A stretch of 64,000 bases of DNA, taken from assembly GCA_013360585.1 (NCBI GenBank), contig JABWBH010000001.1:65820-129819 (forward strand), written 5' to 3'. Shown in pieces: positions 11,439-53,170 of the stretch. This stretch comes from Phycisphaerae bacterium (GTDB lineage: Bacteria; Planctomycetota; Phycisphaerae; UBA1845). Position numbers and translations under genes: made by a program. How positions within the stretch are numbered: position 1 is the first letter of the stretch; each line of letters begins with the position of its first letter. Below the pieces are notes generated by a model. It was not told where the DNA came from. It saw only the letters and a program-made list of their open reading frames with translations, and did not search any database.

Positions 11439-12164
11439 ATGTCGTCACCGAGTCGCCGTGAAGTGCTGGGATCACTGGGAGCGTTGACCGCGGGGGGTTG
11501 GATTTCGCTCGATGCGCAGGCGATCCCCACGCAGGAGCCGCAAGCCGTCCGACCGCCCAAGGCGTACTCTCTGCCCGAGCTGGGGTACCCCTACGACGCC
11601 CTGGAGCCGCACATTGATGCGAAAACGATGGAGCTGCATCACAGCAAGCATCACGCGGCTTACGTCAAGGGGTTGAACGCGGCGCTCGAAAAACTGGCGC
11701 AGACGCGGGAGGGGGGCAATGTCGACGGCGTGTCGGACGCCACGAACGCCCTTTCGTTTCACGGTTCCGGACACATTCTTCACTGCGTGTTCTGGAAGAA
11801 CATGAAGAAGAACGGCGGCGGCGAGCCGAAGGGCGCCGTCGCGCGGGAGATCGAGCGCGACTTCGGCAGCTTCTCCCGCTTCCAGCAGCATTTCAATAAA
11901 GCCTCGGCCGGCGTGCAGGGCAGCGGCTGGGGCATCCTCGCCTACGAGCCGCTCTCCGGACGCCTCCTCGTGTTCGGGGCGGAGAAACACCAGAATCAGA
12001 CGGTCTGGGGCTGCATTCCGCTCCTGGCGCTGGATGTCTGGGAGCACGCTTACTACCTCAAGCACCAGAACAACCGCGGTGCGTACATCGAGGCGTTCTG
12101 GAACGTCATCGACTGGAGCGACGTCGGCGACCGTCTCGAGGCGGCGAGGAAGCTGGTGTCCTAG
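11439..12164 (+). CDS. Fe/Mn superoxide dismutase with twin-arginine signal peptide
   Basis: SOD_Fe motifs LPELGYPYDALEPHID, ELHHSKHH, DVWEHAYY. N-terminus MSSPSRREVLGSLGALTAGGWISLDAQA is Tat-like. Confidence 0.93.
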   Translation: MSSPSRREVLGSLGALTAGGWISLDAQAIPTQEPQAVRPPKAYSLPELGYPYDALEPHIDAKTMELHHSKHHAAYVKGLNAALEKLAQTREGGNVDGVSDATNALSFHGSGHILHCVFWKNMKKNGGGEPKGAVAREIERDFGSFSRFQQHFNKASAGVQGSGWGILAYEPLSGRLLVFGAEKHQNQTVWGCIPLLALDVWEHAYYLKHQNNRGAYIEAFWNVIDWSDVGDRLEAARKLVS

Positions 12165-16037: not shown

Positions 16038-17537
16038 ATGAGCGCGGGACCGGGGGGTCGTGAAAGCGTGATAGGCGCGGCGTGCTGGAGGGGGCTGGGG
16101 TGCGGGCGCACCAGAGTTGTCGGCTTGCTCGGCGCCCTTGTTATTGTCTGCGCTTCGACTTCGGCGGCAGCGCAGGCGTCGTTCGGACGGTCGAAGTCGC
16201 TTGCGGACACGCGGCTGGAGCTGCCGAGCGCGGCACAGGTGGCAGATGTGCTGCTGCTGCGTGAATACAACACGCGGGTGGTGGTGATCGGAACGATGCT
16301 GCTGGGGCTGGGGGCGGGTGTGATCGGGACGTTTCTGTTGCTGCGGAAGCGGGCGCTGATGGGCGACGCGCTCAGTCATGCGACGCTGCCGGGGATCGCC
16401 CTGGCGTTCATCGTGATGACGCGGTTCGGCGGATCGGGCAAGTCGCTGCCGGGTCTGCTGCTGGGGGCGACGATTTTCGGGGGGATCGGCGTGGCCTGCG
16501 TGCTGCTCATTCGCGGAGCGACGCGGCTGAAGGAGGATACGGCGCTGGGTATCGTGCTGAGCGTGTTCTTCGGTCTGGGGGTGTCGCTGCTGGGGGTGAT
16601 CCAGAAGATGGACACCGGTTCGGCTGCGGGGCTGGAGTCGTTCATCTACGGCAAGACGGCGTCGATGCTGGTGTCGGATGCGAAGCTGATCGCGGGGGCG
16701 GCGGCGCTGACGGTCGTCGGGTGCGTCGTGTTTTACAAGGAGTTCTCGCTGCTGTGCTTTGATGAGAGCTTTGCCCGGTCGCAGGGCTGGCCGCGCTTGC
16801 TGCTGGACGGGGTGATGATGGCGATGGTGGTGATGATCACCGTCATCGGATTGGGTGCGGTGGGGCTGATACTGATGATCGCGCTGCTGGTGATCCCTCC
16901 CGCGGCGGCGCGGTTCTGGTCGCATCGTCTGGGTCCGACGGTGTTGATCGCCGGCGGGATCGGTGCGGTGAGCGGCTGGGTCGGCGCGTCGGTCAGCGCG
17001 TTGGCGGCGCGGTTGCCGGCGGGAGCGATCATTGTGCTGACGGCGGCGTCGGCGTTCGTGTTGAGCATGATCTTCGGCGTGAGGCGGGGGGTGTTGGTGC
17101 GTGCGGTGGAGCAGTGGCGACTTCGGCGATCGGTGGCGCGGCAGCACCTGCTTCGGGCGATGTACGAGGCGGAGGAGTCCGGGGCTGCGGCGGCGGGGGT
17201 GGGAGAGGGCGCATTGCTCCGGGCGCGGACGTGGTCACGGCGGGCGCTGCGCGGGGGATTGCGTCGCGCGCGATCAGCCGGCGAGATCGAGCCTGGCGAT
17301 GCAGGGCGCTGGCGTCTGACGGAGGCGGGGCGTGCTGCGGCGGCCCGCGTCGTTCGTAATCACCGTCTCTGGGAGTTGTACCTGGTGACGCACGCGGACA
17401 TCGCGCCCAGCCACGTCGATCGCGACGCGGACGAACTTGAGCATGTTCTTGGCGCGGCGATGGTTGAGGAGTTGGAGTTGCTGCTGGTGCGTGATGAAAG
17501 CCGGGCGGTCGTTCCGGCCAGCCCTCACGCCTTGTAG
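16038..17537 (+). CDS. Metal ABC transporter permease (ABC-3 family) fused to a C-terminal DtxR/MntR-like domain
   Basis: ABC-3 TM core (LLLRKRALMGDALSHATLPGIA...) followed by ~140 aa ending ...RNHRLWELYLVTHADIAPSHVDRDADELEHVLG, resembling the DtxR wHTH plus dimerisation/metal-binding helix. Confidence 0.85.
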   Translation: MSAGPGGRESVIGAACWRGLGCGRTRVVGLLGALVIVCASTSAAAQASFGRSKSLADTRLELPSAAQVADVLLLREYNTRVVVIGTMLLGLGAGVIGTFLLLRKRALMGDALSHATLPGIALAFIVMTRFGGSGKSLPGLLLGATIFGGIGVACVLLIRGATRLKEDTALGIVLSVFFGLGVSLLGVIQKMDTGSAAGLESFIYGKTASMLVSDAKLIAGAAALTVVGCVVFYKEFSLLCFDESFARSQGWPRLLLDGVMMAMVVMITVIGLGAVGLILMIALLVIPPAAARFWSHRLGPTVLIAGGIGAVSGWVGASVSALAARLPAGAIIVLTAASAFVLSMIFGVRRGVLVRAVEQWRLRRSVARQHLLRAMYEAEESGAAAAGVGEGALLRARTWSRRALRGGLRRARSAGEIEPGDAGRWRLTEAGRAAAARVVRNHRLWELYLVTHADIAPSHVDRDADELEHVLGAAMVEELELLLVRDESRAVVPASPHAL

Positions 17538-17560: not shown

Positions 17561-18889
17561 ATGAACTGGTCCTCTTATGACACCTGGATCGTCCTCACTG
17601 GCGCGTTGTGCGCCGGCGCGTGTGCGTTGCCGGGAACGTTTCTTATCCTGCGGCGGATGAGCATGATGGGGGACGCGATCAGTCACGCCGTGCTTCCGGG
17701 GCTTGCGGCGGCGTTCATGCTGACGGGGAGCCGCGGGAGCTGGGTGATGTTCGCCGGGGCGGCCGTGGTCGGCGTGCTGACCGCGTTGTTCACGCAGTGG
17801 GTGAACCGCCTCGGCAAGGTGGAGGAGAGCGCGGCGATGGGGGTCGTCTTCACCGCGTTGTTTGCGCTGGGGCTGGTGATGCTGGTGCAGGCGGCGGACG
17901 ACGTGGATCTCGATCCCGGGTGCGTGCTTTACGGGTCGCTGGAGTTGGCGCCGCTGGATGCGCGGTTGTTTTTTGGAACCCGTGTGCCGCGAGCGGCGCT
18001 GATGCTGGGGGCGGTGTTTCTTGTGAACCTTGTGCTCGTTATCGCGTTTTACAAGGAGCTGCGGATCAGTTCATTCGACCCGGAACTTTCGACCACGCTG
18101 GGGATTCCCGCGGGAATGCTGCACTACGGGCTGATGACGATGGTCGCGGTGACGACGGTGGCGGCGTTCGAGAGCGTCGGGAGCATCCTGGTTATTGCAA
18201 TGCTGATCGTTCCGGCGGCGTCGGCGCGGCTGCTGACGGACCGGTTGTGGCTGACGCTGGCGTTGGCCGTGGTGCTCGGCGCGGGCGGAGCGGCGCTCGG
18301 GCACGTCGGGGCGATCGTCGTTCCTTCCTGGTTCGGATTCGCGGACACAAGCACGGCGGGGATGATGGCGGTGGCGGCGGGAGCGATCTTTGCGTTGTGC
18401 CTGCTCGCGGGTCCGCGGCACGGGTTGGTGAGCCGGGTCGTGCATCGTCTCGGGCTTGCGTTACGGATTGCGCGAGAGGACATCCTGGGGCTGCTTTACC
18501 GGTTGGAGGAAGCGGGTGACCTGCGGCGGGCGCGGGCGGGCGAGGTGGCGTCGCTGATGCGCAGCGCGATCGGCGGAGGACGTGCAGTGACGCGGATTGC
18601 GCTGGCGGATCTCCGACGGCGCGGTCGAGTGACCTTGCGGTCGGGGGAGTTGCGCCTGACGCCGCTGGGGAGGGAGGACGCTCGCAAGCTCGTCCGGTCA
18701 CACCGGTTGTGGGAGACTTACGTCGCCCGACATTTTGCGCTCCCGCCGGATCACCTTCATCCGTCGGCCGGACGAACCGAGCATTATCTTTCGCGGGACA
18801 TGCGGCGGGCGATCGAAGACGAGGCCGACCTTCCGAAGCGCGATCCGCACGGCGCGCCGATCCCAGAGCGGACGAACGAGCCGTCGTGA
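17561..18889 (+). CDS. Second metal ABC transporter permease (ABC-3 family) with a C-terminal DtxR/MntR-like domain
   Basis: ABC-3 core (ILRRMSMMGDAISHAVLPGLA...) followed by ...RSHRLWETYVARHFALPPDHLHPSAGRTEHYLS... . Confidence 0.85.
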   Translation: MNWSSYDTWIVLTGALCAGACALPGTFLILRRMSMMGDAISHAVLPGLAAAFMLTGSRGSWVMFAGAAVVGVLTALFTQWVNRLGKVEESAAMGVVFTALFALGLVMLVQAADDVDLDPGCVLYGSLELAPLDARLFFGTRVPRAALMLGAVFLVNLVLVIAFYKELRISSFDPELSTTLGIPAGMLHYGLMTMVAVTTVAAFESVGSILVIAMLIVPAASARLLTDRLWLTLALAVVLGAGGAALGHVGAIVVPSWFGFADTSTAGMMAVAAGAIFALCLLAGPRHGLVSRVVHRLGLALRIAREDILGLLYRLEEAGDLRRARAGEVASLMRSAIGGGRAVTRIALADLRRRGRVTLRSGELRLTPLGREDARKLVRSHRLWETYVARHFALPPDHLHPSAGRTEHYLSRDMRRAIEDEADLPKRDPHGAPIPERTNEPS

Positions 18890-18956
18890 AAACTCGGAAA
18901 AGGGGGCCTGCGGAGGGGAGGGTGAAGTGCGGAATGATCTGCCAGAAGAAGGCCTG

Positions 18957-19445
18957 ATGAACACGGAACCTGGAGGCAGGTCGGACTCGACTCAGCGATC
19001 GGCCGCGTCGCCGAAGACAGGCGGCGCGCCGGATCCGGCGTTCGCGCAGCGTTTCGCGCGGACCCGGGAGGACCACGCCAGCGAGACGGCGGAGGATTAC
19101 GTCGAGTTGATCGACCAGCTTCACCGCGAGCAGGGCGAGGCTCGCGTCGTGGACATCGCCGCGCGGCTGGGCGTGTCGCACGTGACGGCGAGCCGGACGA
19201 TCGCCCGCCTTCAGAAGGACGGGTTGGTGACGGCGCGGAAATACCGGGCGATCTTTCTGACGGAGTTGGGCGTTGCGCTGGCGCGAGAGAGCCGTCGCCG
19301 TCATGCGGTGGTGCTCGATTTTCTGCGAGCGCTGGGCGTCGGCGACGTGCAGGCCCACCTCGACGCCGAAGGCATCGAACATCACACCAGTCCGGAAACG
19401 CTGGCCGCGATGGAGCGGTTTCTGCGCGGATCGGAAACGCGCTGA
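18957..19445 (+). CDS. mntR: DtxR/MntR-family metal-dependent transcriptional regulator
   Basis: ATG at 18957. EDYVELIDQL..., HTH ARLGVSHVTASRTIARLQKDGLV, and RRHAVVLDFL...DAEGIEHHTSPE metal-site motif. Confidence 0.9.
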   Translation: MNTEPGGRSDSTQRSAASPKTGGAPDPAFAQRFARTREDHASETAEDYVELIDQLHREQGEARVVDIAARLGVSHVTASRTIARLQKDGLVTARKYRAIFLTELGVALARESRRRHAVVLDFLRALGVGDVQAHLDAEGIEHHTSPETLAAMERFLRGSETR

Positions 19446-23972: not shown

Positions 23973-25145
23973 TCAGCCTCGCGCCAGGGCGCGGATGAGG
24001 CGGCGGGACTGGGCGCGGAGCCACGCGAAAGCGTTGGGCGCGGTCGCTCCCGGATGAAGGTGTCCCGCCCCCGGGAACAGGTGCATGTGCAGATATGCCG
24101 CGCGATCGCGCACGCCCGGAAGGCAGAGCAGATCGACGAAGACGTGGCGCAGCGGGCGGGCGGCGTCGTGCGGCGCCTGGTGGATCGCGATCCGATCCTT
24201 AAGCGAGGGATGCGAAGCCGGAGACGGCTGCAACAGGTCCGCGAACCCCGCAAAGCGCATCGGAAACACCTCCTCGATCCGGCGCACGGCGAGGGACATC
24301 GGGTAGCTCAGCCGCCACGCGGACGCAAGCCGGTTTACGCGATCGAAGTCGATCCGCCCGGCCTCATGCTCGCAGAACCGCACGACGTCGTGCAGCCAGC
24401 GAAGCTGAGACAAGCCGTGCCCGGCGGCGTGGACGCAGAGGTGGATCAGCGTCTCCTCAACCGAAGGGGTCCACGCCGGTTCATCGGCGACCGTGATCCG
24501 GCGCGGCGCCAGCCACATCGCCTCGGCGGGGACGGTCTGGCGGTAATGAACCGGTCTGAAGGGGCGAACGTGCACATCAAGCCGCAGCGCGGGCCGGTCC
24601 GGCGTCAGGTAAGGGCGTTCGTAGTAGAACCGCGGGAAAAGCCCCTCGTGCAGGGGTTCGCTTTCGCGGCAACACCCGAGGGAGTCGAGGATCCGATCCG
24701 CGCGGGCGGAGTCCTCCTGTCGGATGAGCAAGTCGATGTCGGACATGCCGCGAAGATCGTCGGCGGCGTATACCGTGGCGTTCAGGGCCGCGCCTTTCAG
24801 CAGCAACGTCGGGACGCCCGCTTCGCGCAGCGCCCGCAGGATCGGACGCAGGCACGCGGACCGTCGCCGGTGGGAGGCGCCGAGGTGGCGCCGATGCTCG
24901 TCGAGGATGATCTGTGCGGATGCGGGAAGCCGGACGCGGCGAGCGCGAAGCGCCTCATCCAGCGGGCCGCCGACGCCAAGTTCGCAGGCTTCGCAAGCGG
25001 CGCGTTCGATCAGGCCGCTTGCGCCCCAGCGCTCGACGAGGGGCGCGGGGTCGCCGTCGAGGCAGCGCGCCAGACCGTGCTGGATCGACTCCGGCGAACG
25101 CTCCCGGATCTCGTCCTTCCAGCGGTGACGGAGCGAGGTTCTCAC
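23973..25145 (-). CDS. Nucleotidyltransferase family protein (NTP_transf_5-like)
   Basis: GTG at 25145 overlaps the upstream stop (GTGA). LLLKGAALNATVY...LRGMSDIDLLI motif. Confidence 0.8.
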   Translation of the reverse strand: MRTSLRHRWKDEIRERSPESIQHGLARCLDGDPAPLVERWGASGLIERAACEACELGVGGPLDEALRARRVRLPASAQIILDEHRRHLGASHRRRSACLRPILRALREAGVPTLLLKGAALNATVYAADDLRGMSDIDLLIRQEDSARADRILDSLGCCRESEPLHEGLFPRFYYERPYLTPDRPALRLDVHVRPFRPVHYRQTVPAEAMWLAPRRITVADEPAWTPSVEETLIHLCVHAAGHGLSQLRWLHDVVRFCEHEAGRIDFDRVNRLASAWRLSYPMSLAVRRIEEVFPMRFAGFADLLQPSPASHPSLKDRIAIHQAPHDAARPLRHVFVDLLCLPGVRDRAAYLHMHLFPGAGHLHPGATAPNAFAWLRAQSRRLIRALARG

Positions 25146-26176
25146 GCGGCTTCGACTCCGGGGCGGACCGGCTCCTCCGGGTGAGTGAGATCGGCGGGGT
25201 CGGGTCGCCCGGATGTCGGCACGTGCGCCCGCCACGCCGCTTCAAGCACGTCGCAGGTGGCGTCAATTTCGCCGGATTCCAACTGAAAACACGCGGCTCT
25301 TTCGACGACGCCACCGAGCACGTCGAGCGTCGCGGCGCGGTAGCGTCCGAAGGTGAAGCACACGCCGAGGAGTTGAAAGAGCGCCCGCGCACGTGAGAGC
25401 GGGTGCAGAGTCGGGGCGGGTCGGGCCACGTAGCGCGGAAACGCGATCATCCCGACGGGAATCCCCCAGGGCGTCCGGTGCGGGCGAAGCGCCTGCGGAT
25501 CGATCAGGCGGACCCGGCCTTTCCAGCTTTTTTCGTAGGACGGAAGCGCGCCGGCGGCGGGGCAGAAAGCGTCCACGATCTCGAACGAGCCTTCCTTGAT
25601 GCACAGGGCCTTCGGATACGGGTCGAGAGAGAGCGTCTCGGGATCGATCAGGGCGAACTCATCGGAAAGGTAGCTCCAGCCGCGGGAGATCAGTCGGGCG
25701 GTGAGCGTGGACTTCCCGCACTGCGGTTGCGCCGGCAGGACGAGGGCGAACCCGTCGCGGGCGACGACGCCGGCGTGGAGCTGGTGATATCGCGGCAGCG
25801 TTGCGGCGACAGCGGCGTTGATCGCCCACTCCACGTGCGGGAGGACCGCCTGCGGCTTGCGCAGGAGGAAGCGTTCTTCCCCGTCCACGCAGATGCGGAA
25901 GCAGCGACCGAGCGGTCTCACGCGGATTATGCGATCCACGCGGATGTGAACCGCCGAAAGCGTCGGACCGCCGATGTAGTGGCGCTGATAAAGGTGGTGA
26001 AAAGGCTCTCGAAAACGCGCGTCCGCGCTGTGCAGGCAGACCGTCACGGCGCCGATCCGGTAGTACGCGGGAGATTCAAGACCGGGCGGCGCCGGGCATG
26101 AAGCGCGCCGTGCGGGGTTGTATCCGTCAAGGGCGGGGCCGACGTCACGTCTGCCGGTCGTCGAAGCCGTGCTCAT
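25142..26176 (-). CDS. HPr-kinase-related P-loop kinase
   Basis: Walker A PAQPQCGKSTLTARL followed by LSDEF. ATG overlaps the PqqD-like stop (ATGA at 26173-26176). Confidence 0.8.
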   Translation of the reverse strand: MSTASTTGRRDVGPALDGYNPARRASCPAPPGLESPAYYRIGAVTVCLHSADARFREPFHHLYQRHYIGGPTLSAVHIRVDRIIRVRPLGRCFRICVDGEERFLLRKPQAVLPHVEWAINAAVAATLPRYHQLHAGVVARDGFALVLPAQPQCGKSTLTARLISRGWSYLSDEFALIDPETLSLDPYPKALCIKEGSFEIVDAFCPAAGALPSYEKSWKGRVRLIDPQALRPHRTPWGIPVGMIAFPRYVARPAPTLHPLSRARALFQLLGVCFTFGRYRAATLDVLGGVVERAACFQLESGEIDATCDVLEAAWRAHVPTSGRPDPADLTHPEEPVRPGVEAA

Positions 26177-26562
26177 GAAACTTCGTCCGCCCCGAGGATT
26201 CGCCCGATCCAGCCGTGCCGTCGCATCGCGGCGAGTACCGGTGCGAAGCGCGAGGCAACTTCGTCCGTCCTCTCACCGTGTTTCTGCGCCAACTTGAGAA
26301 AGATGGCGGCATCGTCGCGCGTGCCGTCAACCTGCTTGAAGACCTCAAAGGCATCGGCGTCGAGATACAGAACTTCGTGAGCTCCCGGGTCGTACACGAC
26401 GGCCTCGTCGTCGATGCGGTGGACGACGACTTCCCGGCAGATCCGCCAGCGCGTGGCTTCCGGCATGCTGGTCGTCGGAGGCTCCGCGAGCGCCCGCGTC
26501 GATGAAACGGGGCGGCGGCGTCCTTCCGGCGTTTGTTCAGGATGAGACATGGCTTGTGGCAT
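26173..26562 (-). CDS. PqqD-family peptide chaperone (RRE-like)
   Basis: VHRIDDEAVVYDPGAHEVLYLDADAFEVFKQVDG is typical of PqqD/RRE domains. Alternative starts at 26550 and 26466; the latter gives 97 aa, the usual PqqD size. Confidence 0.75.
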   Translation of the reverse strand: MPQAMSHPEQTPEGRRRPVSSTRALAEPPTTSMPEATRWRICREVVVHRIDDEAVVYDPGAHEVLYLDADAFEVFKQVDGTRDDAAIFLKLAQKHGERTDEVASRFAPVLAAMRRHGWIGRILGADEVS

Positions 26563-26746
26563 ACGTCGACTGCGGTTGCAGAAGCAGAATGACCGGGGCC
26601 GCCTTGAGCGCGGTCTTCCCGATCGTGGTCATCAGGGTTCGGCGCGTGGTTCCAGACCGGCCCCTGCCGCGGTCGTTGGCATCCGATGCGACCTGGGTGT
26701 CCTGGCCGTGGAGGGGTGCAGAATCAGAGTCAGGGATGTCTGACAT
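26537..26746 (-). CDS. Candidate precursor/substrate peptide (69 aa) ending in ...STYATSHVSS
   Basis: GGAG 7 nt before the ATG. GC3 about 74% by hand count. Acidic N-terminus, RR basic patch, hydrophobic core, hydroxyl-rich C-terminus. No homology evidence available. Confidence 0.4.
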   Translation of the reverse strand: MSDIPDSDSAPLHGQDTQVASDANDRGRGRSGTTRRTLMTTIGKTALKAAPVILLLQPQSTYATSHVSS

Positions 26747-26860
26747 CGGTGGCTCCGGTGTACGTGCGCCGGGGGACCACCCCGATCCGGCGATGCGGTT
26801 TTATCGGCGGGAACGAGGGGGGAGTCCGAATTCATGTCGGATGGCGGGGTGGTCAGCCAC

Positions 26861-26903
26861 TAAATTAAATTTTAGGAATAAAAGAAAATTTTTAATTTAA
26901 TTA
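26861..26903. promoter_or_regulatory. 43-nt AT island (3 G, 0 C) with a 9-bp inverted repeat in a divergent control region
   Basis: AATTAAATT (26863-26871) / AATTTAATT (26894-26902). The surrounding DNA is GC-rich. Confidence 0.4.
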
Positions 26904-26947
26904 CCCTCAGGCAAGCACTCTGGGTTTGCGTTTTTGCAATCCTCCCC

Positions 26948-26976: not shown

Positions 26977-27128
26977 ACGTCCTCTTAAAGGTCTGGGAGG
27001 TGTATTTGCTCACTTCTCGGCTTGCGGGTTTTGTCCATAGTGGAAAGCGGACAGCACAGAGACGGGGAAAGTCACGCAATCATTGCTGATTCGTCGTGCA
27101 TCATTTTCGGAGGAGGAGGGGTTCGGAC

Positions 27129-27821
27129 ATGCGTAACGCGAAACTGATGGGTGCGGTTCTTCTTGCGGGAGCGGCCGCCCCGGCGATGGCGGGAGTGATC
27201 GTTCAAACCAAGACGGCCACGTTCCAGAGCGACCTGAACAACGACGTGATCCTGACGTTCGACTCGTTCGACACGCAGGGCGGGACGCTGATTCTGCAAA
27301 GCGTCCGCGTGGATGTTCGTCATGCCGGCGGCGCGATTCTCCGCGCTGACAACGACGACACGTTCCAGGGCGCGACGGTTAACGGCCGCATCATTCGCGC
27401 GTGGACCTTGACGGGTCCGGACGCTTTCGCCGCGGACAACGAAACGGTGACGACGCCGACGGTGGATCTGGGGCCGGATGACGGCGACGGGGCGGCCTTC
27501 GACGCGACGGGTCCGGACGGCACGGATTTCGGGTCGGTTTCTTACGGACCGGATTTCTCGGTGACGTTGAATCCGAATTCCGCCCTGTATGCGACGAACG
27601 GTGCGGGCACGGTGGACTTCACGACGGATGTGCTCCTGATGGTCAATGACCTTCAGTTTGTGGTCGAGCCGGATGTCTGGCAGCTTGAGGTTCAGGCGCC
27701 CTACCTCGATGTTGAGGTGAAGCTGACCTACGAGTTCACGGTTGTGCCGGTTCCGGCGGGAGTCTGGTTGGCTGCGTTCGGGCTTGGCGTTGCCGGCTGG
27801 ATTCGCAAGCGCATCGCCTAA
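27129..27821 (+). CDS. Secreted protein with VPxPA-CTERM (PEP-CTERM variant) sorting signal
   Basis: GGAGGAGGAGGGG RBS. Signal peptide MRNAKLMGAVLLAGAAAPAMA. C-terminus VPVPAGVWLAAFGLGVAGWIRKRIA (motif, TM, basic cluster). Confidence 0.75.
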   Translation: MRNAKLMGAVLLAGAAAPAMAGVIVQTKTATFQSDLNNDVILTFDSFDTQGGTLILQSVRVDVRHAGGAILRADNDDTFQGATVNGRIIRAWTLTGPDAFAADNETVTTPTVDLGPDDGDGAAFDATGPDGTDFGSVSYGPDFSVTLNPNSALYATNGAGTVDFTTDVLLMVNDLQFVVEPDVWQLEVQAPYLDVEVKLTYEFTVVPVPAGVWLAAFGLGVAGWIRKRIA

Positions 27822-29278: not shown

Positions 29279-29944
29279 TCATTTTGTGTGTGTTCGGCGG
29301 AGGAGCGCCGCCGCCAGCACCAGCAACGTCAGCGTCGCTGGTTCGGGAGTCAGCACGACCGTGTCCAGTCCGTTCACCTGGTTTCCACCGCGGTAGTCGC
29401 CCCGCAACATCAACTCCTCCAGCCCGCCAAGCACGAAGCGCATATCCGCCTCCGTCGCAGGAAGCCCGGTCTGCTCGTTTTTCCAGCCGGCGGTTTCGCG
29501 CAGGATCACTTCGTAAGAAGTCCAAGACTCGTTCGGCGTCTTCGGGTCATCGAACGAAAGCGTCAACGCCCCGCGCGTCAGCAGGACGTCCTGCTGCGTC
29601 AGATACATGTCGTTGACCGGCATTCCCTCCCCCGGAAGGGAAATCAGGTCGAAAGACAGCGATCCGCCGTATGCGGCTGAGACATCGCCGAGAAAGGCGT
29701 CCGGCGCCGTCCAGAACCACCGCTGCCCGCCGATCCGCTGATCGACGCCGGAAATGTACCCGCCGGGGTTCCCCCCGGTGTTGAGATGCTGCGGAACGAA
29801 AAGGTCTCCGCGAAAGAAAATCCGCCACCCTTCGTCCGTCTCATCGAACGTGCTCGTCGCGATCACGTCCGCCTGAGCGTCCACCGCCGTCGTCCCCGCC
29901 GCCAGCGCGCAGCCCAGCGCGCACGCCAACCCGCGATTCTTCAT
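29279..29944 (-). CDS. PEP-CTERM sorting-domain protein
   Basis: ATG at 29944 with GGAGG upstream. Signal peptide MKNRGLACALGCALAAGTTAVDAQA. C-terminus TPEPATLTLLVLAAALLRRTHTK is the classic PEP motif, TM and Arg cluster. Confidence 0.8.
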   Translation of the reverse strand: MKNRGLACALGCALAAGTTAVDAQADVIATSTFDETDEGWRIFFRGDLFVPQHLNTGGNPGGYISGVDQRIGGQRWFWTAPDAFLGDVSAAYGGSLSFDLISLPGEGMPVNDMYLTQQDVLLTRGALTLSFDDPKTPNESWTSYEVILRETAGWKNEQTGLPATEADMRFVLGGLEELMLRGDYRGGNQVNGLDTVVLTPEPATLTLLVLAAALLRRTHTK

Positions 29945-30193
29945 CGTTCCCGCCTCCGGTGGATCCGGTTCGACCGCGCCGACGCAACCCGCCTGAAACT
30001 TGGCGCGCGTCTGCCACGTGCGCCAAGCCGCCGGCGTCGTCCCGGCTCCTTGTAAGAAAGATCGGTCCGACACTTGCCGGGCATTCAGCGGATTCTTAGA
30101 GGATTCTCATCGGCTGATTGTGAAATTCACAGCGGGAGGCGAAGTTCCCGGCATTCAAGCCTCGGCGGCGCAGCAGGTTGCGCCCCGCCGAAG

Positions 30194-30940
30194 TCAGGAC
30201 GGTCGCATTCGGCGTTCGTGAAGCAGTTGGTAGAATGAATTCGCCGCGTCCAGCAGCGTCTGGTACTGAACCGGAAGTGCTTCCGTCCGCGGGCGATATG
30301 CCTCGAACCCGGTGGATTTTTCGACCGCCGCGTACCAATACTTCGCCCAGATTCCGTCCGTCGGGCGCGGTCCGGCAGGCCAGGTCAGCATCTCTTGTGT
30401 AAACGCGACCCCCAGCCGGTCGCACAGCGTGGACAGCATTTCCCGGGGATGCTCCAGCACATCTCGGGCGTCAAGGATCACCGGAGTCTGCCCGGTGCGT
30501 TGCTCCTGCCGACGCAGGATTTCGACCTGCTGAACCAGCCCCGTGTCCGCCAGCGTGATGTCGGGCGTGACCTTCACCAGCGAAAGCAGCATCTCCCGCG
30601 GGTCACGGATGAGAAACGCGTGGGTTAAGTGATCGAGCCAGGCGTCGTCCATCCCTGGCAGAAGGTGATGCGCCATGTGTTTCTGGAAAAAGATCGCCTT
30701 CCCCTGCGGGACAGGTCCGGTGAGCCAGGCGACGACCTTCCGCCAGTCCGTCTCGTGATGAGCGATCACCTCATCCCGTCCGGGATGGGGCAGCCCCGTC
30801 ACGGCGAGGTAGTGCGCGTAAAGGGGTTCATCGCAGACGAACGTGTCGGGGCGATTTCCCCAGGCGCGCATCATCGCGGTCGAGATGTTGCGGGGTCCGG
30901 ACCACATGGCGAGACGCAGGTTTTCAGATTTGTGGGACAC
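30194..30940 (-). CDS. Sulfotransferase-like P-loop protein
   Basis: N-terminal WSGPRNISTAMMRA resembles a PAPS 5'-phosphosulfate-binding loop; 248 aa. Family call is from recollection only. Confidence 0.5.
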   Translation of the reverse strand: MSHKSENLRLAMWSGPRNISTAMMRAWGNRPDTFVCDEPLYAHYLAVTGLPHPGRDEVIAHHETDWRKVVAWLTGPVPQGKAIFFQKHMAHHLLPGMDDAWLDHLTHAFLIRDPREMLLSLVKVTPDITLADTGLVQQVEILRRQEQRTGQTPVILDARDVLEHPREMLSTLCDRLGVAFTQEMLTWPAGPRPTDGIWAKYWYAAVEKSTGFEAYRPRTEALPVQYQTLLDAANSFYQLLHERRMRPS

Positions 30941-51469: not shown

Positions 51470-53170
51470 ATGGATCGCCTGTCGCATCACGATGTCATGA
51501 TCGTTCTCCTGAGCCTGGGGGTGCTCCTCCTGGTGGCGCGGACGGCTGGCGAGTTGGCGCGACGGTTAAATCAACCGGCGGTCCTGGGCGAGATCCTCGC
51601 GGGGATCGCCTTGGGCGCCACCGGGTTCGGGCGCCTGTTTCCGAACGCCCACGCCGCGCTTTTCCCGAGTTCCGGACCCCCCACCCTGGTTCTCCACGGT
51701 ATCGGCACCGTGGGCGTCGTGCTTTTCCTTCTTGTGGCGGGGATGGAAGTGGACCTCTCGACGATCTGGCGCCAGGGGCGCACCGCGGCCACGGTGAGTC
51801 TGATGGGGATCGTGATTCCCTTCGGAATCGGGTGGGGCGCGGCGCAGGTGATGCCGGAGTTGCTCGGACTGGAGCCCGGAGCGGACCGCTGGGTTTTCTC
51901 CTTGTTTCTGGGGACGGCACTGGCGATCTCCGCGTTGCCGGTCATCGCCCGGACGCTGATGGACCTGGATTTGTATCGCACGGACTTCGGGATGCTGGTT
52001 ATCGCCGCGGCGATCGTCGACGACCTTGTCGGGTGGATGATCTTCGCGCTGTTGCTGGCGATGATCGGTGCACCGGGGCACGGGATGAGCGTCGGGTGGA
52101 CGGTGCTGATGACGCTGGGACTTGCGGCGTTCGTGCTGACGATCGGGCGCTGGGGGGTGAACCGCACGCTGCCGTGGCTTCAGGCGCATACGAGCTGGCC
52201 GGGCGGTGTGCTGGGGTTTGCGCTGTCCTTGGCGCTGTTTTTCGCGGCGCTGACGGAGTGGATCGGGATTCACGCGGTGTTCGGCGCGTTTCTGGTCGGC
52301 GTGGCGCTGGGCGACTCGGTTCACCTTCGCGAGCAGACTCGGGCGACGATCGAGCGCTTCGTGGCGTCGTTCTTCGCGCCGTTGTTCTTCGCCACGATCG
52401 GACTGAGGATTGACTTTATCCGCAATTTTGAGGTGTTTCTGTCTCTTCTGGTGGTTCTGATCGCGTGCGCCGGGAAGGTGCTCGGGTGCGCGCTGGGCGC
52501 GCGGATCACCGGGACGCCGGCGCGGGAGGCGTGGGCGATCGGGTTCGGGCTGAATGCTCGAGGCGCGATGGAGATCATCCTGGGGCTGCTGGCGCTTCAA
52601 GCCGGGTTGATCGGCGAGCGTTTGTTCGTGTCGCTCGTTTTCATGGCGCTGATAACGTCGGTCATCTGCGGACCGGCGGTGCAGAAGATCCTCGGACGGC
52701 GGCGGGTGCGGCGCTTTGTGGATTACCTCGTGCCGAAGGCGTTCGTCCCTCGACTCGTCTCGACGGACCGGCGCGAAGTCATCTCCGAGCTTTGCCGGGC
52801 GATCGCTCCGGCGGCGGGGCGAGACACGGCGCTCGTCGAGGACGCGGTCTGGAACCGGGAGCAGACGATGTCCACCGGGCTGGAGCAGGGGCTGGCGATT
52901 CCGCACGCGCGGATTCCGGGGCTTGCCGCGCCGCTGGTGGGACTCGGGTTGTCCTTCGGCGGCGTGGACTTCGACGCCTACGACGGCGAACCGGCGCGGA
53001 TCATTGTGCTGATTCTCACCCCGGAGGATGATCGCGGCGTGCAGGTCAATCTGCTGGCCGACATCGCCCGGACCTTGAAGGATCCGGAATTGCGGACGAA
53101 GGTGCTCCACGTCACCAACGCGACGGAATTGCTGGCCCTGATCCGGACCGAGGCGCCGCCGCCGGCGTAG
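51470..53170 (+). CDS. Cation:proton antiporter (CPA2/Kef-type) fused to a C-terminal PTS EIIA(Ntr/Fru)-type domain
   Basis: ~400-aa Na_H_exchanger-like TM core. C-terminal ~140 aa with GLAIPHARIPG (EIIA-2 phospho-His context). Confidence 0.85.
   Translation: MDRLSHHDVMIVLLSLGVLLLVARTAGELARRLNQPAVLGEILAGIALGATGFGRLFPNAHAALFPSSGPPTLVLHGIGTVGVVLFLLVAGMEVDLSTIWRQGRTAATVSLMGIVIPFGIGWGAAQVMPELLGLEPGADRWVFSLFLGTALAISALPVIARTLMDLDLYRTDFGMLVIAAAIVDDLVGWMIFALLLAMIGAPGHGMSVGWTVLMTLGLAAFVLTIGRWGVNRTLPWLQAHTSWPGGVLGFALSLALFFAALTEWIGIHAVFGAFLVGVALGDSVHLREQTRATIERFVASFFAPLFFATIGLRIDFIRNFEVFLSLLVVLIACAGKVLGCALGARITGTPAREAWAIGFGLNARGAMEIILGLLALQAGLIGERLFVSLVFMALITSVICGPAVQKILGRRRVRRFVDYLVPKAFVPRLVSTDRREVISELCRAIAPAAGRDTALVEDAVWNREQTMSTGLEQGLAIPHARIPGLAAPLVGLGLSFGGVDFDAYDGEPARIIVLILTPEDDRGVQVNLLADIARTLKDPELRTKVLHVTNATELLALIRTEAPPPA

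Follow-up and report, generated by a model that had tools for sequence, protein, structure and literature searches.

The locus described here raises the question of what a PqqD-like protein, an HprK-like kinase and a nucleotidyltransferase act on when no genes for building a lasso peptide accompany them. We analyzed a 64,000-nucleotide stretch of DNA from a Phycisphaerae bacterium (the window), for which the initial annotation had proposed that these three proteins form a stand-alone trio and that a short upstream open reading frame (sORF) encodes their substrate. The ORFs, gene overlaps, motifs and sORF peptide given in that annotation all hold on re-examination, and the proposal itself is supported by our computational tests. 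Four minus-strand genes are translationally coupled: the 69-codon sORF, the PqqD-like gene, an HprK-related kinase A-like gene and an NTP_transf_5 nucleotidyltransferase gene (Table 1). A 4-nt overlap, ATGA (26176-26173), joins the PqqD-like ORF to the kinase gene and another, GTGA (25145-25142), joins the kinase gene to the nucleotidyltransferase gene, and the starts of the two downstream genes at these overlaps are the same starts chosen by independent gene callers. The longest ORF for the nucleotidyltransferase extends from 25235 to 23973 (420 aa), and for the PqqD-like ORF gene callers also start at 26550, giving 125 aa, or at 26466, giving 97 aa. Upstream of the sORF, the window and the loci L001 and L002 have nearly the same sequence over about 90 nt before the ATG, and the N-terminal coding region diverges. 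The consensus fold of this 5' leader has an energy of -27 kcal/mol, with no covariation to draw on for the stem-loop, and a comparison with Rfam gave no credible match.

Table 1. Features of the four-gene region, numbered by position in the window (P+n is counted from P51 of the peptide).
Feature	Position	Strand	Basis
Operon 5' leader	26747..26856	-	Conserved; predicted stem-loop; downstream of AT-rich island at ~26858-26905
Precursor-like sORF, 69 aa: MSDIPDSDSAPLHGQDTQVASDANDRGRGRSGTTRRTLMTTIGKTALKAAPVILLLQPQSTYATSHVSS	26537..26746	-	ORF with upstream GGAG; family HMM E 6.8e-17
Twin arginine R35-R36 within TTRRTLM	26639..26644	-	RR invariant in 34-sequence alignment
Putative RRE-binding strand K48-A-A-P51-V-I53	26588..26605	-	Window version of YxxPx[V/I/L]
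AxA-like site T61-Y-A63 (P+10 to P+12), putative signal-peptidase/leader cleavage	26558..26566	-	Family conservation
Core/tail T64-S-H-V-S68-S69	26540..26557	-	S68 at conserved Ser position AxA+5; S69 C-terminal
PqqD-like RRE chaperone, 129 aa from first ATG	26173..26562	-	Pfam PqqD and TIGR04353 matches
HprK-related kinase A-like P-loop kinase, 344 aa	25142..26176	-	TIGR04352 match
Walker A loop PAQPQCGKST, residues 148-157	25706..25735	-	Aligns to HprK/P P-loop
NTP_transf_5 nucleotidyltransferase, 390 aa from GTG overlapping kinase stop	23973..25145	-	PF14907
Catalytic D-I-D within MSDIDLLI	24732..24740	-	Conservation among nucleotidyltransferase homologues

The genome is 66% GC, spurious ORFs are common at such a composition, and the sORF is uncalled in three NCBI assemblies, so it could be asked whether the frame is open by chance and simply belongs to the 5' UTR of PqqD. 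Against this, a GGAG lies 6 nt (spacer ccaccg) 5' of its ATG, one ENA record calls it as a 69-aa gene, and related peptides are present in 85 database clusters. Of about 56 informative homologous loci, 54 have a co-oriented ORF within the cassette that is matched by an HMM built on the C-terminal 38 residues of the peptide (E 1e-6 to 1e-18); at most loci this ORF lies directly 5' of PqqD or of a VKOR/DsbA-PqqD pair, and no comparable match occurs outside the cassette in six-frame translations of 80 loci and the window. These ORFs have the RR-hydrophobic core that the initial annotation had described and a Ser-rich end, and the RR, the proline, the AxA and the Ser tail are conserved at the protein level in distant taxa. 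The comparative data effectively refute a chance frame, to which we assign a negligible probability. Judged by its conservation, the sORF is a real gene. We found no curated family or paper describing these precursors, and what is new here is a previously unannotated small peptide paired with lasso-tailoring-type enzymes.

The only genes that all related loci have in common are those for the peptide, PqqD, the kinase and the nucleotidyltransferase, which occur in three orders: peptide-PqqD-kinase-nucleotidyltransferase, nucleotidyltransferase-peptide-PqqD-kinase, and peptide-VKOR/DsbA-PqqD-kinase. The link to PEP-CTERM and exosortase genes suggested in the initial annotation did not survive this comparison, as such neighbors are not conserved in other loci. 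The partnership reaches beyond Planctomycetota: in Sphingomonas, an RR-leader gene lies directly 5' of a bona fide HPr-rel-A system (TIGR04352 235 bits; TIGR04353 64 bits), and loci of gamma- and zetaproteobacteria also contain such genes. Fusions of the PqqD domain to the RR leader and tail occur in Binatia, in one actinobacterium and in Acidobacteria, where they form 423 clusters at 90% identity; in locus L041 the kinase and peptide are in frame, and two proteins (P0085 and P0091) are kinase-PqqD fusions. These data bear on whether the sORF might encode an ordinary secreted mini-protein that merely lies beside an unrelated trio, as the resemblance of its leader to generic Tat or Sec signals and its fast-evolving N-terminal half (14 non-synonymous and 2 synonymous changes relative to its closest orthologues) would allow. 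However, the adjacency survives three gene orders and crosses phyla, the peptide is fused to both PqqD and kinase domains, and peptides with different cargo keep a common leader motif. The synteny and fusions thus disfavor an accidental neighbor, which we consider very unlikely.

The precursors consist of a variable acidic N-region, a leader of the form [S/T]RRxF[L/V]-x4-K-x3-(Y)xxP-x-[V/I/L] that runs to the AxA, and a short Ser-rich core, giving a family motif of [S/T]RRxF[L/V]...KLxYxxPx[V/I/L]...AxA followed by a Ser-rich tail. Of 56 family members, 55 carry RRx[FLVIM][LVIMF]; P51 is invariant in the family alignment, and at P-3 Tyr is more common than any other residue; the window peptide deviates in having Lys at P-3 instead of Tyr and TL after the RR instead of FL. 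In lasso leaders, a YxxPxL motif sits at -17 to -12 (PMC10368454), and the hydrophobic stretch of our peptides reads as containing a lasso-type RRE-binding motif (KLxYxxPxV). The family RKLxYxxPx[VL] resembles SRKLIYKKPQL of the lasso precursor BsfA. The likeness rests on this short motif, because the peptide HMM gives no significant match to BsfA as a whole. The PqqD-like ORF matches Pfam PqqD (E 3.7e-5, 24.4 bits; cutoff 23.4) and scores 24.1 bits against TIGR04353, below the cutoff of 35, and an HMM made from the PqqD proteins of the loci scores the characterized lasso B1 protein BsfB1 at 61.8 bits. In an AlphaFold2 model of a natural PqqD-leader fusion, the segment equivalent to the putative RRE-binding strand is a beta-strand (pLDDT ~78), and the nearest solved folds to a related fusion include TbiB1 with bound leader. 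That the leader strand docks on PqqD is inferred only from the secondary structure and pLDDT of that model.

Both enzymes look active. The kinase matches TIGR04352 HprK_rel_A over its full length (E 4.4e-52, 176.9 bits, below the cutoff of 200) and is covered by Pfam PF27840 'ScmC', and its best PDB sequence matches are HprK/P proteins. Its Walker A loop aligns to the BsfK motif G163-G166-G168-K169-S170 (PMC10368454), it carries an LSDEF motif, and H134, G154, K155, T157, D172 and E173 are invariant. The AlphaFold2 model (pLDDT 86) has a PEPCK or HprK/P-like fold, and the invariant His, P-loop and Asp-Glu together with this fold suggest activity. The nucleotidyltransferase matches PF14907 NTP_transf_5 (E 4.9e-40), and all 55 homologues from related loci keep the K-G, the D-x-D and a third D/E.

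Where the modification would fall is suggested by the end of the peptide. Ala is found at P+10 in 41/53 peptides and at P+12 in 46/53; an exact AxA occurs in 43/56 (P+10 to P+12) and a small residue at -1 in 52/56. Tails beyond this point are 5-9 residues long or form a 6-Cys knottin-like domain. Of 56 peptides, 48 have Ser or Thr at AxA+4 or +5; Ser frequency peaks at P+16 and P+17, and all 35 acidobacterial fusions have Ser at AxA+5. The initial annotation had suggested that the C-terminal Ser is the tagged residue. Among the short tails, 30 of 39 do end in Ser (TSHVSS in the window), in agreement with the C-terminal-Ser specificity of paeninodin-type kinases (PMC8498205). A C-terminal Ser fails as a rule for the whole family, because knottin-type relatives end without Ser, and both these and the proteobacterial relatives have long extensions beyond the conserved Ser. 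What the family conserves is a Ser at a constant spacing from the leader motif (AxA+4/+5; S68 in the window) rather than the C-terminus itself. BsfB1 speeds up BsfK, which phosphorylates Ser3 just past the leader, at P+16 (PMC10368454).

The homology of the three proteins to lasso B1, K and N proteins (PMC8498205) would also fit an ordinary split lasso cluster with its cyclase and B2 peptidase elsewhere in the genome, a possibility that the initial annotation had named. A Pfam scan of the window ORFs selected as likely genes found no Asn-synthetase-like cyclase, transglutaminase-like peptidase or peptide exporter anywhere in the 64 kb, and among 103 flanking ORFs of 53 loci no cyclase or B2 peptidase genes recur and none forms a conserved cluster. 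The junction is AxA, versus the Thr/Ile(-2) of lasso precursors, and a macrolactam ring is impossible since the six-residue core offers neither Asp nor Glu at positions 7-9. We consider a split lasso cluster highly improbable.

The absence of an exporter is explained by the leader if this is a Tat-like signal with an AxA site. The leader looks like one in layout, with [S/T]RRxFL, about 13 hydrophobic residues and AxA, the same arrangement as in the Tat-like SOD leader in the window (SRREVLGSLGALTAGG...AQA). No dedicated exporter, transporter or protease is conserved near the 53 loci. A VKOR-DsbA fusion gene accompanies only the Cys-rich peptides; it is present at 12 of the 16 loci with such peptides and at none of about 38 with short tails. 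On the other side, Tat-signal models did not reach threshold on 34 peptides (TIGR01409 gave E 0.03 for 2/34), the N-region before the RR is unusually long (median ~33 aa, with uncertain assigned starts), and we know of no Tat cargo of 6 residues. The initial annotation had seen the hydrophobic stretch as a Tat/Sec signal or a leader helix; we read this stretch as containing the lasso-type KLxYxxPxV motif, which the fusion model shows as a strand and not a helix, and the leader as a whole has the Tat layout with AxA.

These points allow another reading, in which the leader serves only to bind the RRE, with the RR and hydrophobic features used for enzyme recognition, and the peptide stays in the cytoplasm or uses an unlinked transporter, the AxA being cut by an unlinked peptidase. 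The fixed AxA-to-Pro spacing is typical of an enzyme ruler, whereas ordinary signal h-regions vary in length; YxxPxV resembles the lasso leader (PMC10368454); and the predicted strand, the non-significant Tat HMMs and the internal position of the RR segment in PqqD fusions agree with it. It accounts less well for the Tat-like layout, for the lack of a conserved transporter or protease, and for the embedding in the operon, only beside a Cys-rich peptide, of a periplasmic disulfide-forming VKOR-DsbA. We regard it as possible, if unlikely.

Because the RR segment is internal in the PqqD-leader fusions, there is no classical N-terminal signal there, and a membrane anchor is possible. The small protein might then be a membrane-anchored scaffold, a transmembrane anchor bound to PqqD that brings the kinase and nucleotidyltransferase to the membrane to act on a lipid, a glycan or another protein. 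The acidobacterial fusions, with PqqD, RR, a 19-residue hydrophobic segment and a short tail, do look like an N-in single-pass protein, there is extreme variation in what follows the leader, which may be nothing, a knottin or a ~100-aa domain, and glycosyltransferases lie beside a few loci. However, a pure anchor would not need the fixed-register Ser that is conserved after AxA across phyla and invariant in the fusions, both characterized kinase homologues modify an RRE-bound peptide (PMC8498205, PMC10368454), and the in-frame kinase-peptide arrangement at L041 favors the peptide as substrate. We consider the scaffold unlikely.

The reading that we prefer, with a probability of roughly 0.6, is that the region is a four-gene operon for a lasso-independent, RiPP-like peptide-tagging pathway and that the cassette is related to the 'HPr-rel-A system' but has diverged (Phycisphaerae type). 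The PqqD-like protein would bind the leader (Y)xxPxV as a beta-strand, as lasso B1 does with YxxPxL, and present the core to the HprK-like kinase, which would phosphorylate the fixed-register Ser (S68, or alternatively S65 or the C-terminal S69). The NTP_transf_5 enzyme would then put a further group on the phosphate or serine, a hexose in one studied homologue. The twin-arginine-type leader would direct export, and a cut after AxA would free the modified hexapeptide into the periplasm or medium. Gene identities, their coupling, the conservation and co-variation of the parts, the domain fusions and the lack of lasso genes are direct observations; we infer the binding, modified residue, export and cleavage from the comparisons above, and the proposed chemistry is taken by analogy from homologues. 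The recurrence of the pairing across several bacterial phyla, together with the Tat-like leader, suggests that these are modified, exported peptides of a kind not described before.

Several known systems share parts of this arrangement. The MdcG/CitX holo-ACP synthases, nucleotidyltransferase-fold enzymes that attach phosphoribosyl-dephospho-CoA to Ser, are a precedent for this fold making a Ser-O-phosphodiester on a carrier protein. Their likeness to the window nucleotidyltransferase is distant (TIGR03135 E 6.3e-5; Pfam MdcG E 0.025), far under family cutoffs, so the analogy is mechanistic only, and no malonate or citrate lyase genes lie near it. In SynChlorMet, ScmC (HprK-like) and ScmD (PqqD-like) are paired in a presumed peptide-modification cassette much as in the window, with weak matches (TIGR04249 E 1.3e-4; TIGR04248 E 0.05), but SCM cassettes center on radical-SAM/SPASM enzymes, which the window cassette lacks. 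Bufferins, MNIO-modified RiPPs, acquire their modification in the cytoplasm before signal peptidase cuts them, and a general-secretion signal replaces a dedicated exporter (PMC11626156), as we propose for the window peptide. They differ in their enzymes (MNIO and DUF2063, making thiooxazoles, rather than an RRE, kinase and nucleotidyltransferase) and in their signal, which is Sec and dispensable for modification, whereas the window leader is Tat-like and carries the presumed RRE-binding motif.

The phosphorylated and phosphoglycosylated lasso pathways (paeninodin PadeK, ThcoK and SyanK; Bradymonas BsfA/BsfB1/BsfK/BsfN; pseudomycoidin PsmK/PsmN) share with the window a PqqD-like RRE (B1), an HPr-kinase-like Ser kinase and an NTP_transf_5-type nucleotidyltransferase (PMC8498205, PMC10368454), as well as the YxxPx[L/V] leader motif (PMC10368454). 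Their kinases work on the linear precursor, accelerated by the RRE, and the acceptor Ser is C-terminal or a few residues past the leader (PMC8498205, PMC10368454). In contrast, the window cassette has no cyclase, B2 peptidase or ABC exporter, its core is too short and has no acidic residue, its leader adds a twin-arginine part and an AxA end, and its kinase resembles BsfK only around the P-loop (26.7 bits).

The HPr-rel-A system of NCBIfam/TIGRFAMs, consisting of TIGR04352 (HprK-related kinase A) and TIGR04353 ('HPr-rel-A system PqqD family peptide chaperone'), had been named in the initial annotation. These two models are the best NCBIfam matches of the PqqD-like protein and the kinase of the window, and the adjacent PqqD-kinase pair is common to both systems, although the scores given above lie under the trusted cutoffs. 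We found no substrate for this system named in any curated model or searchable paper. The part after the leader differs, being 5-9 residues or a knottin-like domain in the Phycisphaerae branch and a ~95-aa domain in Sphingomonas. The bona fide HPr-rel-A locus of Sphingomonas (L061) has the same four-gene layout as the window, including the NTP_transf_5 gene and the RR-leader gene.

The four genes of the cassette lie consecutively on the minus strand in the order short ORF (sORF), PqqD-like protein, P-loop kinase and NTP_transf_5 nucleotidyltransferase (NTase), and independent gene callers agree on the cassette gene starts. The window sequence contains both the ATGA and the GTGA overlap, as well as the GGAG ahead of the sORF, as described in the initial annotation. 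The ATGA overlap, at 26176-26173, couples the PqqD gene to the kinase gene directly downstream, and this PqqD-then-kinase order is kept in all informative loci that we compared. The kinase matches the TIGR04352 model, 'HprK-related kinase A', over model positions 3-278 of 280 with 176.9 bits, below the trusted cut-off of 200 bits, and judged from its sequence it is a diverged relative of that family; identical copies are annotated in Phycisphaerae MAGs. It has the features of the HprK/P-type superfamily, namely a preceding His, a P-loop, an acidic pair and a PEPCK-like fold, and the residues H134, G154, K155, T157, D172 and E173 are invariant. The top PDB matches of the kinase family profile are HprK/P, and the AlphaFold2 model of the window kinase (pLDDT 86) has a PEPCK / HprK/P fold, with Foldseek probabilities of 1.0 for PEPCK and 0.97-1.0 for HprK/P. 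The best NCBIfam match of the PqqD-like protein is TIGR04353, 'HPr-rel-A system PqqD family peptide chaperone', at 24.1 bits, which is under the 35-bit cut-off. The NTase scores 138.1 bits against PF14907 (cut-off 31.2), and its KG, DxD and third acidic residue (KG...DxD...D) are invariant in 55/55 homologues. A PDB sequence search with the PqqD and NTase proteins returned nothing useful.

The 69-aa sORF is called by one gene caller but is not annotated as a gene in three NCBI assemblies for this organism. We compared it with 80 loci encoding kinase relatives, one genome per species, using an HMM made from twelve upstream ORFs (the last ~38 residues of each). This HMM was run on every stop-to-stop segment, in six frames, of these loci and the window. 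There were 59 segments with E < 1e-3, every one co-oriented with a cassette, and the sole match in the window was the sORF itself (E 6.8e-17). Such an ORF is conserved upstream of orthologous cassettes, with a match inside the cassette in 54 of the ~56 loci that have sufficient upstream sequence, in most loci directly ahead of PqqD or of VKOR/DsbA-PqqD. On this conservation, a chance ORF is excluded. Compared with its closest orthologues, in loci L001 and L002, the sORF has 31 fast-diverging N-terminal residues followed by 38 that are nearly fixed. Counts of synonymous and non-synonymous changes against these two orthologues (0-3 and 3-4, respectively, in the conserved half) were uninformative as a test: the conserved half holds too few changes, and the N-terminal half simply diverges. 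We noted that the ~90 nt ahead of the sORF start are near-identical in the window, L001 and L002 despite the divergent first 31 codons. The segment just upstream of the start could be a regulatory 5' leader, and ahead of it is an AT-rich island that stands out in a genome of 66% GC, which is also the GC content of the window. Upstream of the sORF, a sigma-70 scan found no promoter-like site, terminator-like sites were at chance level, and an Rfam search found no credible RNA family.

Coordinates of the cassette, its surroundings in the window and selected features of related loci (locus-prefixed coordinates refer to the related loci)
Feature	Coordinates	Strand	Remarks
sORF	26746-26537	minus	69 codons
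PqqD-like protein	26562-26173	minus	Pfam PqqD E 3.7e-5; TIGR04353 ~24 bits
HprK-related P-loop protein	26176-25142	minus	344 aa; TIGR04352 E 4.4e-52
NTP_transf_5 nucleotidyltransferase	25145/25235-23973	minus	PF14907 E 4.9e-40
Possible 5' leader	26747-26856	minus	predicted long stem-loop, -27 kcal/mol
AT-rich island	about 26858-26905		45 nt; just upstream of the possible 5' leader
Secreted protein	27096-27821	plus	PEP-CTERM-like C-terminus ...VPVPAGVWLAAFGLGVAGWIRKRIA
Secreted protein	29279-30073	minus	PEP-CTERM-like C-terminus ...TPEPATLTLLVLAAALLRRTHTK; Laminin_B domain
Sulfotransfer_5 gene	30194-30940	minus	E 6e-55; 3.4 kb from the cassette
Fe/Mn superoxide dismutase	11439-12164	plus	twin-arginine-type leader MSSPSRREVLGSLGALTAGGWISLDAQA; SRREVLGSLGALTAGG...AQA
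ABC-3 permeases, ZnuA-type metal uptake	16038-17537, 17561-18889	plus	both with C-terminal DtxR-type 'Fe_dep_repr_C' metal-binding/dimerisation domain
Separate DtxR-like repressor	18735-19445		after the two permeases
ORF of 1167 aa	47359-50862	minus	coding-like GC3 pattern
Na+/H+ exchanger fused to PTS EIIA-2 domain	51470-53170	plus	
VKOR-DsbA fusion (example)	L053:5202-6626		also in L036, L037, L039, L043, L044, L049, L050, L052, L056, L058, L059
Acidobacterial PqqD-leader fusion	L066:6238-6699		also in L067, L069, L072, L076; proteins P0178-P0297
Acidobacterial PqqD-leader fusion	L068:3565-4089	minus	
Acidobacterial PqqD-leader fusion	L074:6694-8463		
Kinase ORF running into peptide-family sequence	L041:6959-8215		
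Frame of tandem HHKPVP repeats	L050:6376-6852		
GT4-family glycosyltransferase (example)	L031:7892-9451		

We counted the family consensus on 56 peptides. A variable, mostly acidic N-region is followed by the motif [S/T]RRxF[L/V] (RRx[FLVIM][LVIMF] in 55/56 peptides, with Ser or Thr before the RR in 41/56), then by G-K/R-K, by L/A-x-Y-x-x-P-[V/L/A]-[V/I] and by a hydrophobic run; the RR and one Pro are invariant in an alignment of 34 sequences. Counted from this Pro, an AxA site lies at exactly P+10 to P+12, being exact in 43/56 peptides, and 52/56 have a small residue at -1. A Ser or Thr follows at AxA+4 or +5 in 48/56. In the window peptide the corresponding features are R35-R36, K48-A-A-P51-V-I53 and T61-Y-A63, followed by the tail T64-S-H-V-S68-S69, and its KAAPVI has Lys where the family motif YxxPx[VIL] has Tyr. 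What follows the conserved leader is of three types: short and Ser-rich, knottin-like, or a domain of ~100 aa. Tails that are not Cys-rich occur in 39/56 peptides; 36 of these 39 have 5-9 residues, 30 end in Ser, and Ser makes up 33% of their tail residues. The other 17 tails are Cys-rich, with a C-C-CC-C-C domain and weak matches to the conotoxin and spider-toxin knottin families.

As in RiPPs in general, a conserved leader and a variable core are found beside an RRE and modifying enzymes, and here the link between precursor and enzymes comes from synteny and gene fusions. The genes shared by all loci are just four, those for the peptide, PqqD, kinase and NTase, and they come in one of three gene orders: peptide-PqqD-kinase-NTase, NTase-peptide-PqqD-kinase, or peptide-VKOR/DsbA-PqqD-kinase, in which the NTase may stand on either side. 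The VKOR-DsbA fusion (Pfam VKOR and DSBA) is present in 12/16 loci with Cys-rich peptides, in most of them inserted between the peptide gene and PqqD, versus 0 of ~38 loci with short tails. This confinement ties the enzyme set to the peptide and suggests that the peptide may reach the periplasm. It may be that the six-Cys peptides with VKOR-DsbA are knottin-like products that these bacteria secrete and that have an oxidase of their own. Six loci, all of them knottin-type (L031, L043, L049, L053, L054 and L058), have a GT4-family glycosyltransferase gene after the cassette, and this enzyme might help to elaborate the tag. In one of the VKOR-DsbA loci, L050, the frame of tandem HHKPVP repeats overlaps the PqqD gene around its start.

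The family also accompanies a bona fide HPr-rel-A system. In Sphingomonas pseudosanguinis (locus L061), proteins with 235 bits to TIGR04352 and 64.4 bits to TIGR04353 are found together with an NTP_transf_5 protein, preceded by a gene for ...TSRRALMLGALGASTVVAIRPALA/QTTGSVLTCEIP..., which continues for ~95 residues past the leader; three other Sphingomonadales, one gammaproteobacterium and one zetaproteobacterium are similar. In Acidobacteria, Binatia and an actinobacterium, a PqqD domain is fused ahead of the RR-leader and tail. The acidobacterial fusions, laid out as PqqD, RR-hydrophobic segment, AxA and Ser-containing tail, make up 423 database clusters at 90% identity that are annotated only as 'PqqD family protein', and 35 aligned fusions all share the RR, the P, the AxA and the Ser at AxA+5. 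One fusion tail, in L074, carries repeated knottin-like modules and a Pro/Ala-rich region. Kinase-PqqD fusions also exist, and in L041 the kinase ORF runs stop-free into peptide-family sequence with two knottin-like modules, which is either a fusion of kinase and precursor or a precursor that starts internally.

We looked for the genes of an ordinary lasso peptide cluster. In a scan of those window ORFs that we took as likely genes, there is no Asn_synthase-like cyclase (C), no transglutaminase-like peptidase (B2) and no peptide ABC exporter, in agreement with the initial annotation, and no cyclase, B2 or exporter family is recurrent in 103 flanking ORFs from 53 loci. For ring closure a lasso core needs ~13 residues or more, with an acidic one (Asp or Glu) at position 7-9; TSHVSS, the core in the window, has six residues, none of them acidic, and is therefore unable to form a lasso. 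The window neighbours are housekeeping genes (gyrA, trpA, sodA, znu, mreB, cutC, murA, nusA, infB and others), and we found no extra conserved gene family near the loci. The link to PEP-CTERM proteins proposed in the initial annotation is unsupported, as no neighbour family beyond the four cassette genes is common with other loci, and the Pfam PEP-CTERM model does not match the two secreted proteins with PEP-CTERM-like C-termini. We considered the sulfotransferase as a fifth cassette member and rejected it; sulfotransferases are present in some Firmicute lasso clusters, and its proximity here is probably coincidental because it is not a conserved neighbour elsewhere. Elsewhere in the window, the fusion of permeases to an Fe_dep_repr_C domain is unusual, the EIIA-2 domain of the Na+/H+ exchanger is the only PTS-related domain seen, and the 1167-aa ORF has no Pfam match at E <= 1e-5.

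Our boldest reading is tentative, and we give it a probability of roughly 0.3: these peptides would form a new ribosomal peptide class in which the leader is both the recognition element of the cytoplasmic PqqD chaperone and a twin-arginine export signal, giving a Ser-tagged, Tat-exported product. In the mechanism that we propose, PqqD would bind the (Y)xxPxV strand of the leader; in the bolder reading it would also hold the signal, much as the Tat 'proofreading' chaperones TorD and DmsD do, until the modification is built. The kinase would phosphorylate the register-fixed Ser, in the window S68 or alternatively S65 or S69, and the NTase would extend this to a phospho-linked adduct. The leader, with its Tat-like layout, would then direct export, and the product set free by signal peptidase cleavage after AxA would be a peptide of 5-9 residues (TSHVSS, modified, in the window), a knottin or a small protein, in each case tagged. 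The NTase could make an activated phosphodiester, and for this reason the tag might also link the peptide to a polymer of the envelope. By inspection the window peptide has the Tat-like layout TTRRTLM...TYA; the TIGR01409 Tat model gives E 0.03 at best, in 2/34 peptides, which is not significant. Weak points of the mechanism are this Tat result, the long N-region before the RR, and the PqqD fusions, in which the RR segment is internal and may be a membrane anchor. The superoxide dismutase leader in the window offers a useful comparison, from the same genome, for that of the sORF. Bufferins provide a precedent for RiPPs with a general signal peptide (PMC11626156).

The HPr-rel-A cassette was named by curators from its enzymes alone, and the conserved, previously unannotated family of putative precursors described here is its missing piece, with a range covering Planctomycetota, Acidobacteriota, several Proteobacteria, Binatia and Actinobacteria. 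No curated family was matched when we scanned 34 peptides, along with the proteobacterial and fused variants, against Pfam and NCBIfam, and there were only weak conotoxin/Toxin_12 and TAT_signal matches; database copies of the peptides are all 'hypothetical protein', and the fusions 'PqqD family protein'. A full-text literature search for the HPr-rel-A system or such precursors returned lasso-peptide papers only. If the leader is indeed both RRE ligand and Tat signal, RiPP export and quality control would follow a new logic here. The family would also offer access to phospho- or phosphoglycosyl-peptides and to knottin-like peptides of bacterial origin.

The closest known systems are those of lasso tailoring. 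HPr-kinase homologues of lasso clusters phosphorylate the linear precursor, with paeninodin, ThcoK and SyanK on the C-terminal Ser, and in pseudomycoidin an associated nucleotidyltransferase puts a hexose on that phosphate (PMC8498205). In Bradymonas, the target of the kinase BsfK is core Ser3 of the lasso precursor BsfA, whose leader has YxxPxL at -17 to -12, and the reaction is strongly accelerated by the PqqD-like B1 protein BsfB1 (PMC10368454). We translated the published Bsf genes for comparison. BsfA reads ...SRKLIYKKPQLTYHSTLAAIIR/GTSGNEVD..., and the present family reads ...ARKLAYVAPVVLLLRPRPACA/SRIYS or .../ASGVSSTS. The block RKLxYxxPx[L/V] is common to both, and the acceptor Ser of BsfA is at P+16, with Ser peaks at P+16 and P+17 in the present family. 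The PqqD HMM from our loci matches BsfB1 over its full length (61.8 bits), and the kinase HMM matches BsfK around the P-loop only (26.7 bits). The peptide HMM aligns only RKLxY of BsfA, and because the match is not significant as a whole, the case for homologous leaders depends on a short motif and on how it is spaced. As with lasso B1 proteins, whose leaders carry YxxPxL ~12-17 residues before the core, a PqqD-like RRE is paired here with a leader that has YxxPx[VIL]; in the present family an AxA lies at P+10 to P+12. In the AlphaFold2 model of a natural acidobacterial PqqD-leader fusion (pLDDT 72), the PLVVS segment of the leader is predicted as a beta-strand (pLDDT ~78) between disordered linkers, and among the nearest solved structures is the lasso RRE TbiB1 with its bound leader. 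The lasso-tailoring trio of RRE, Ser kinase and nucleotidyltransferase appears at these loci as a self-contained putative pathway as well. The parts are already known; what is new is the stand-alone arrangement and the signal-like leader.
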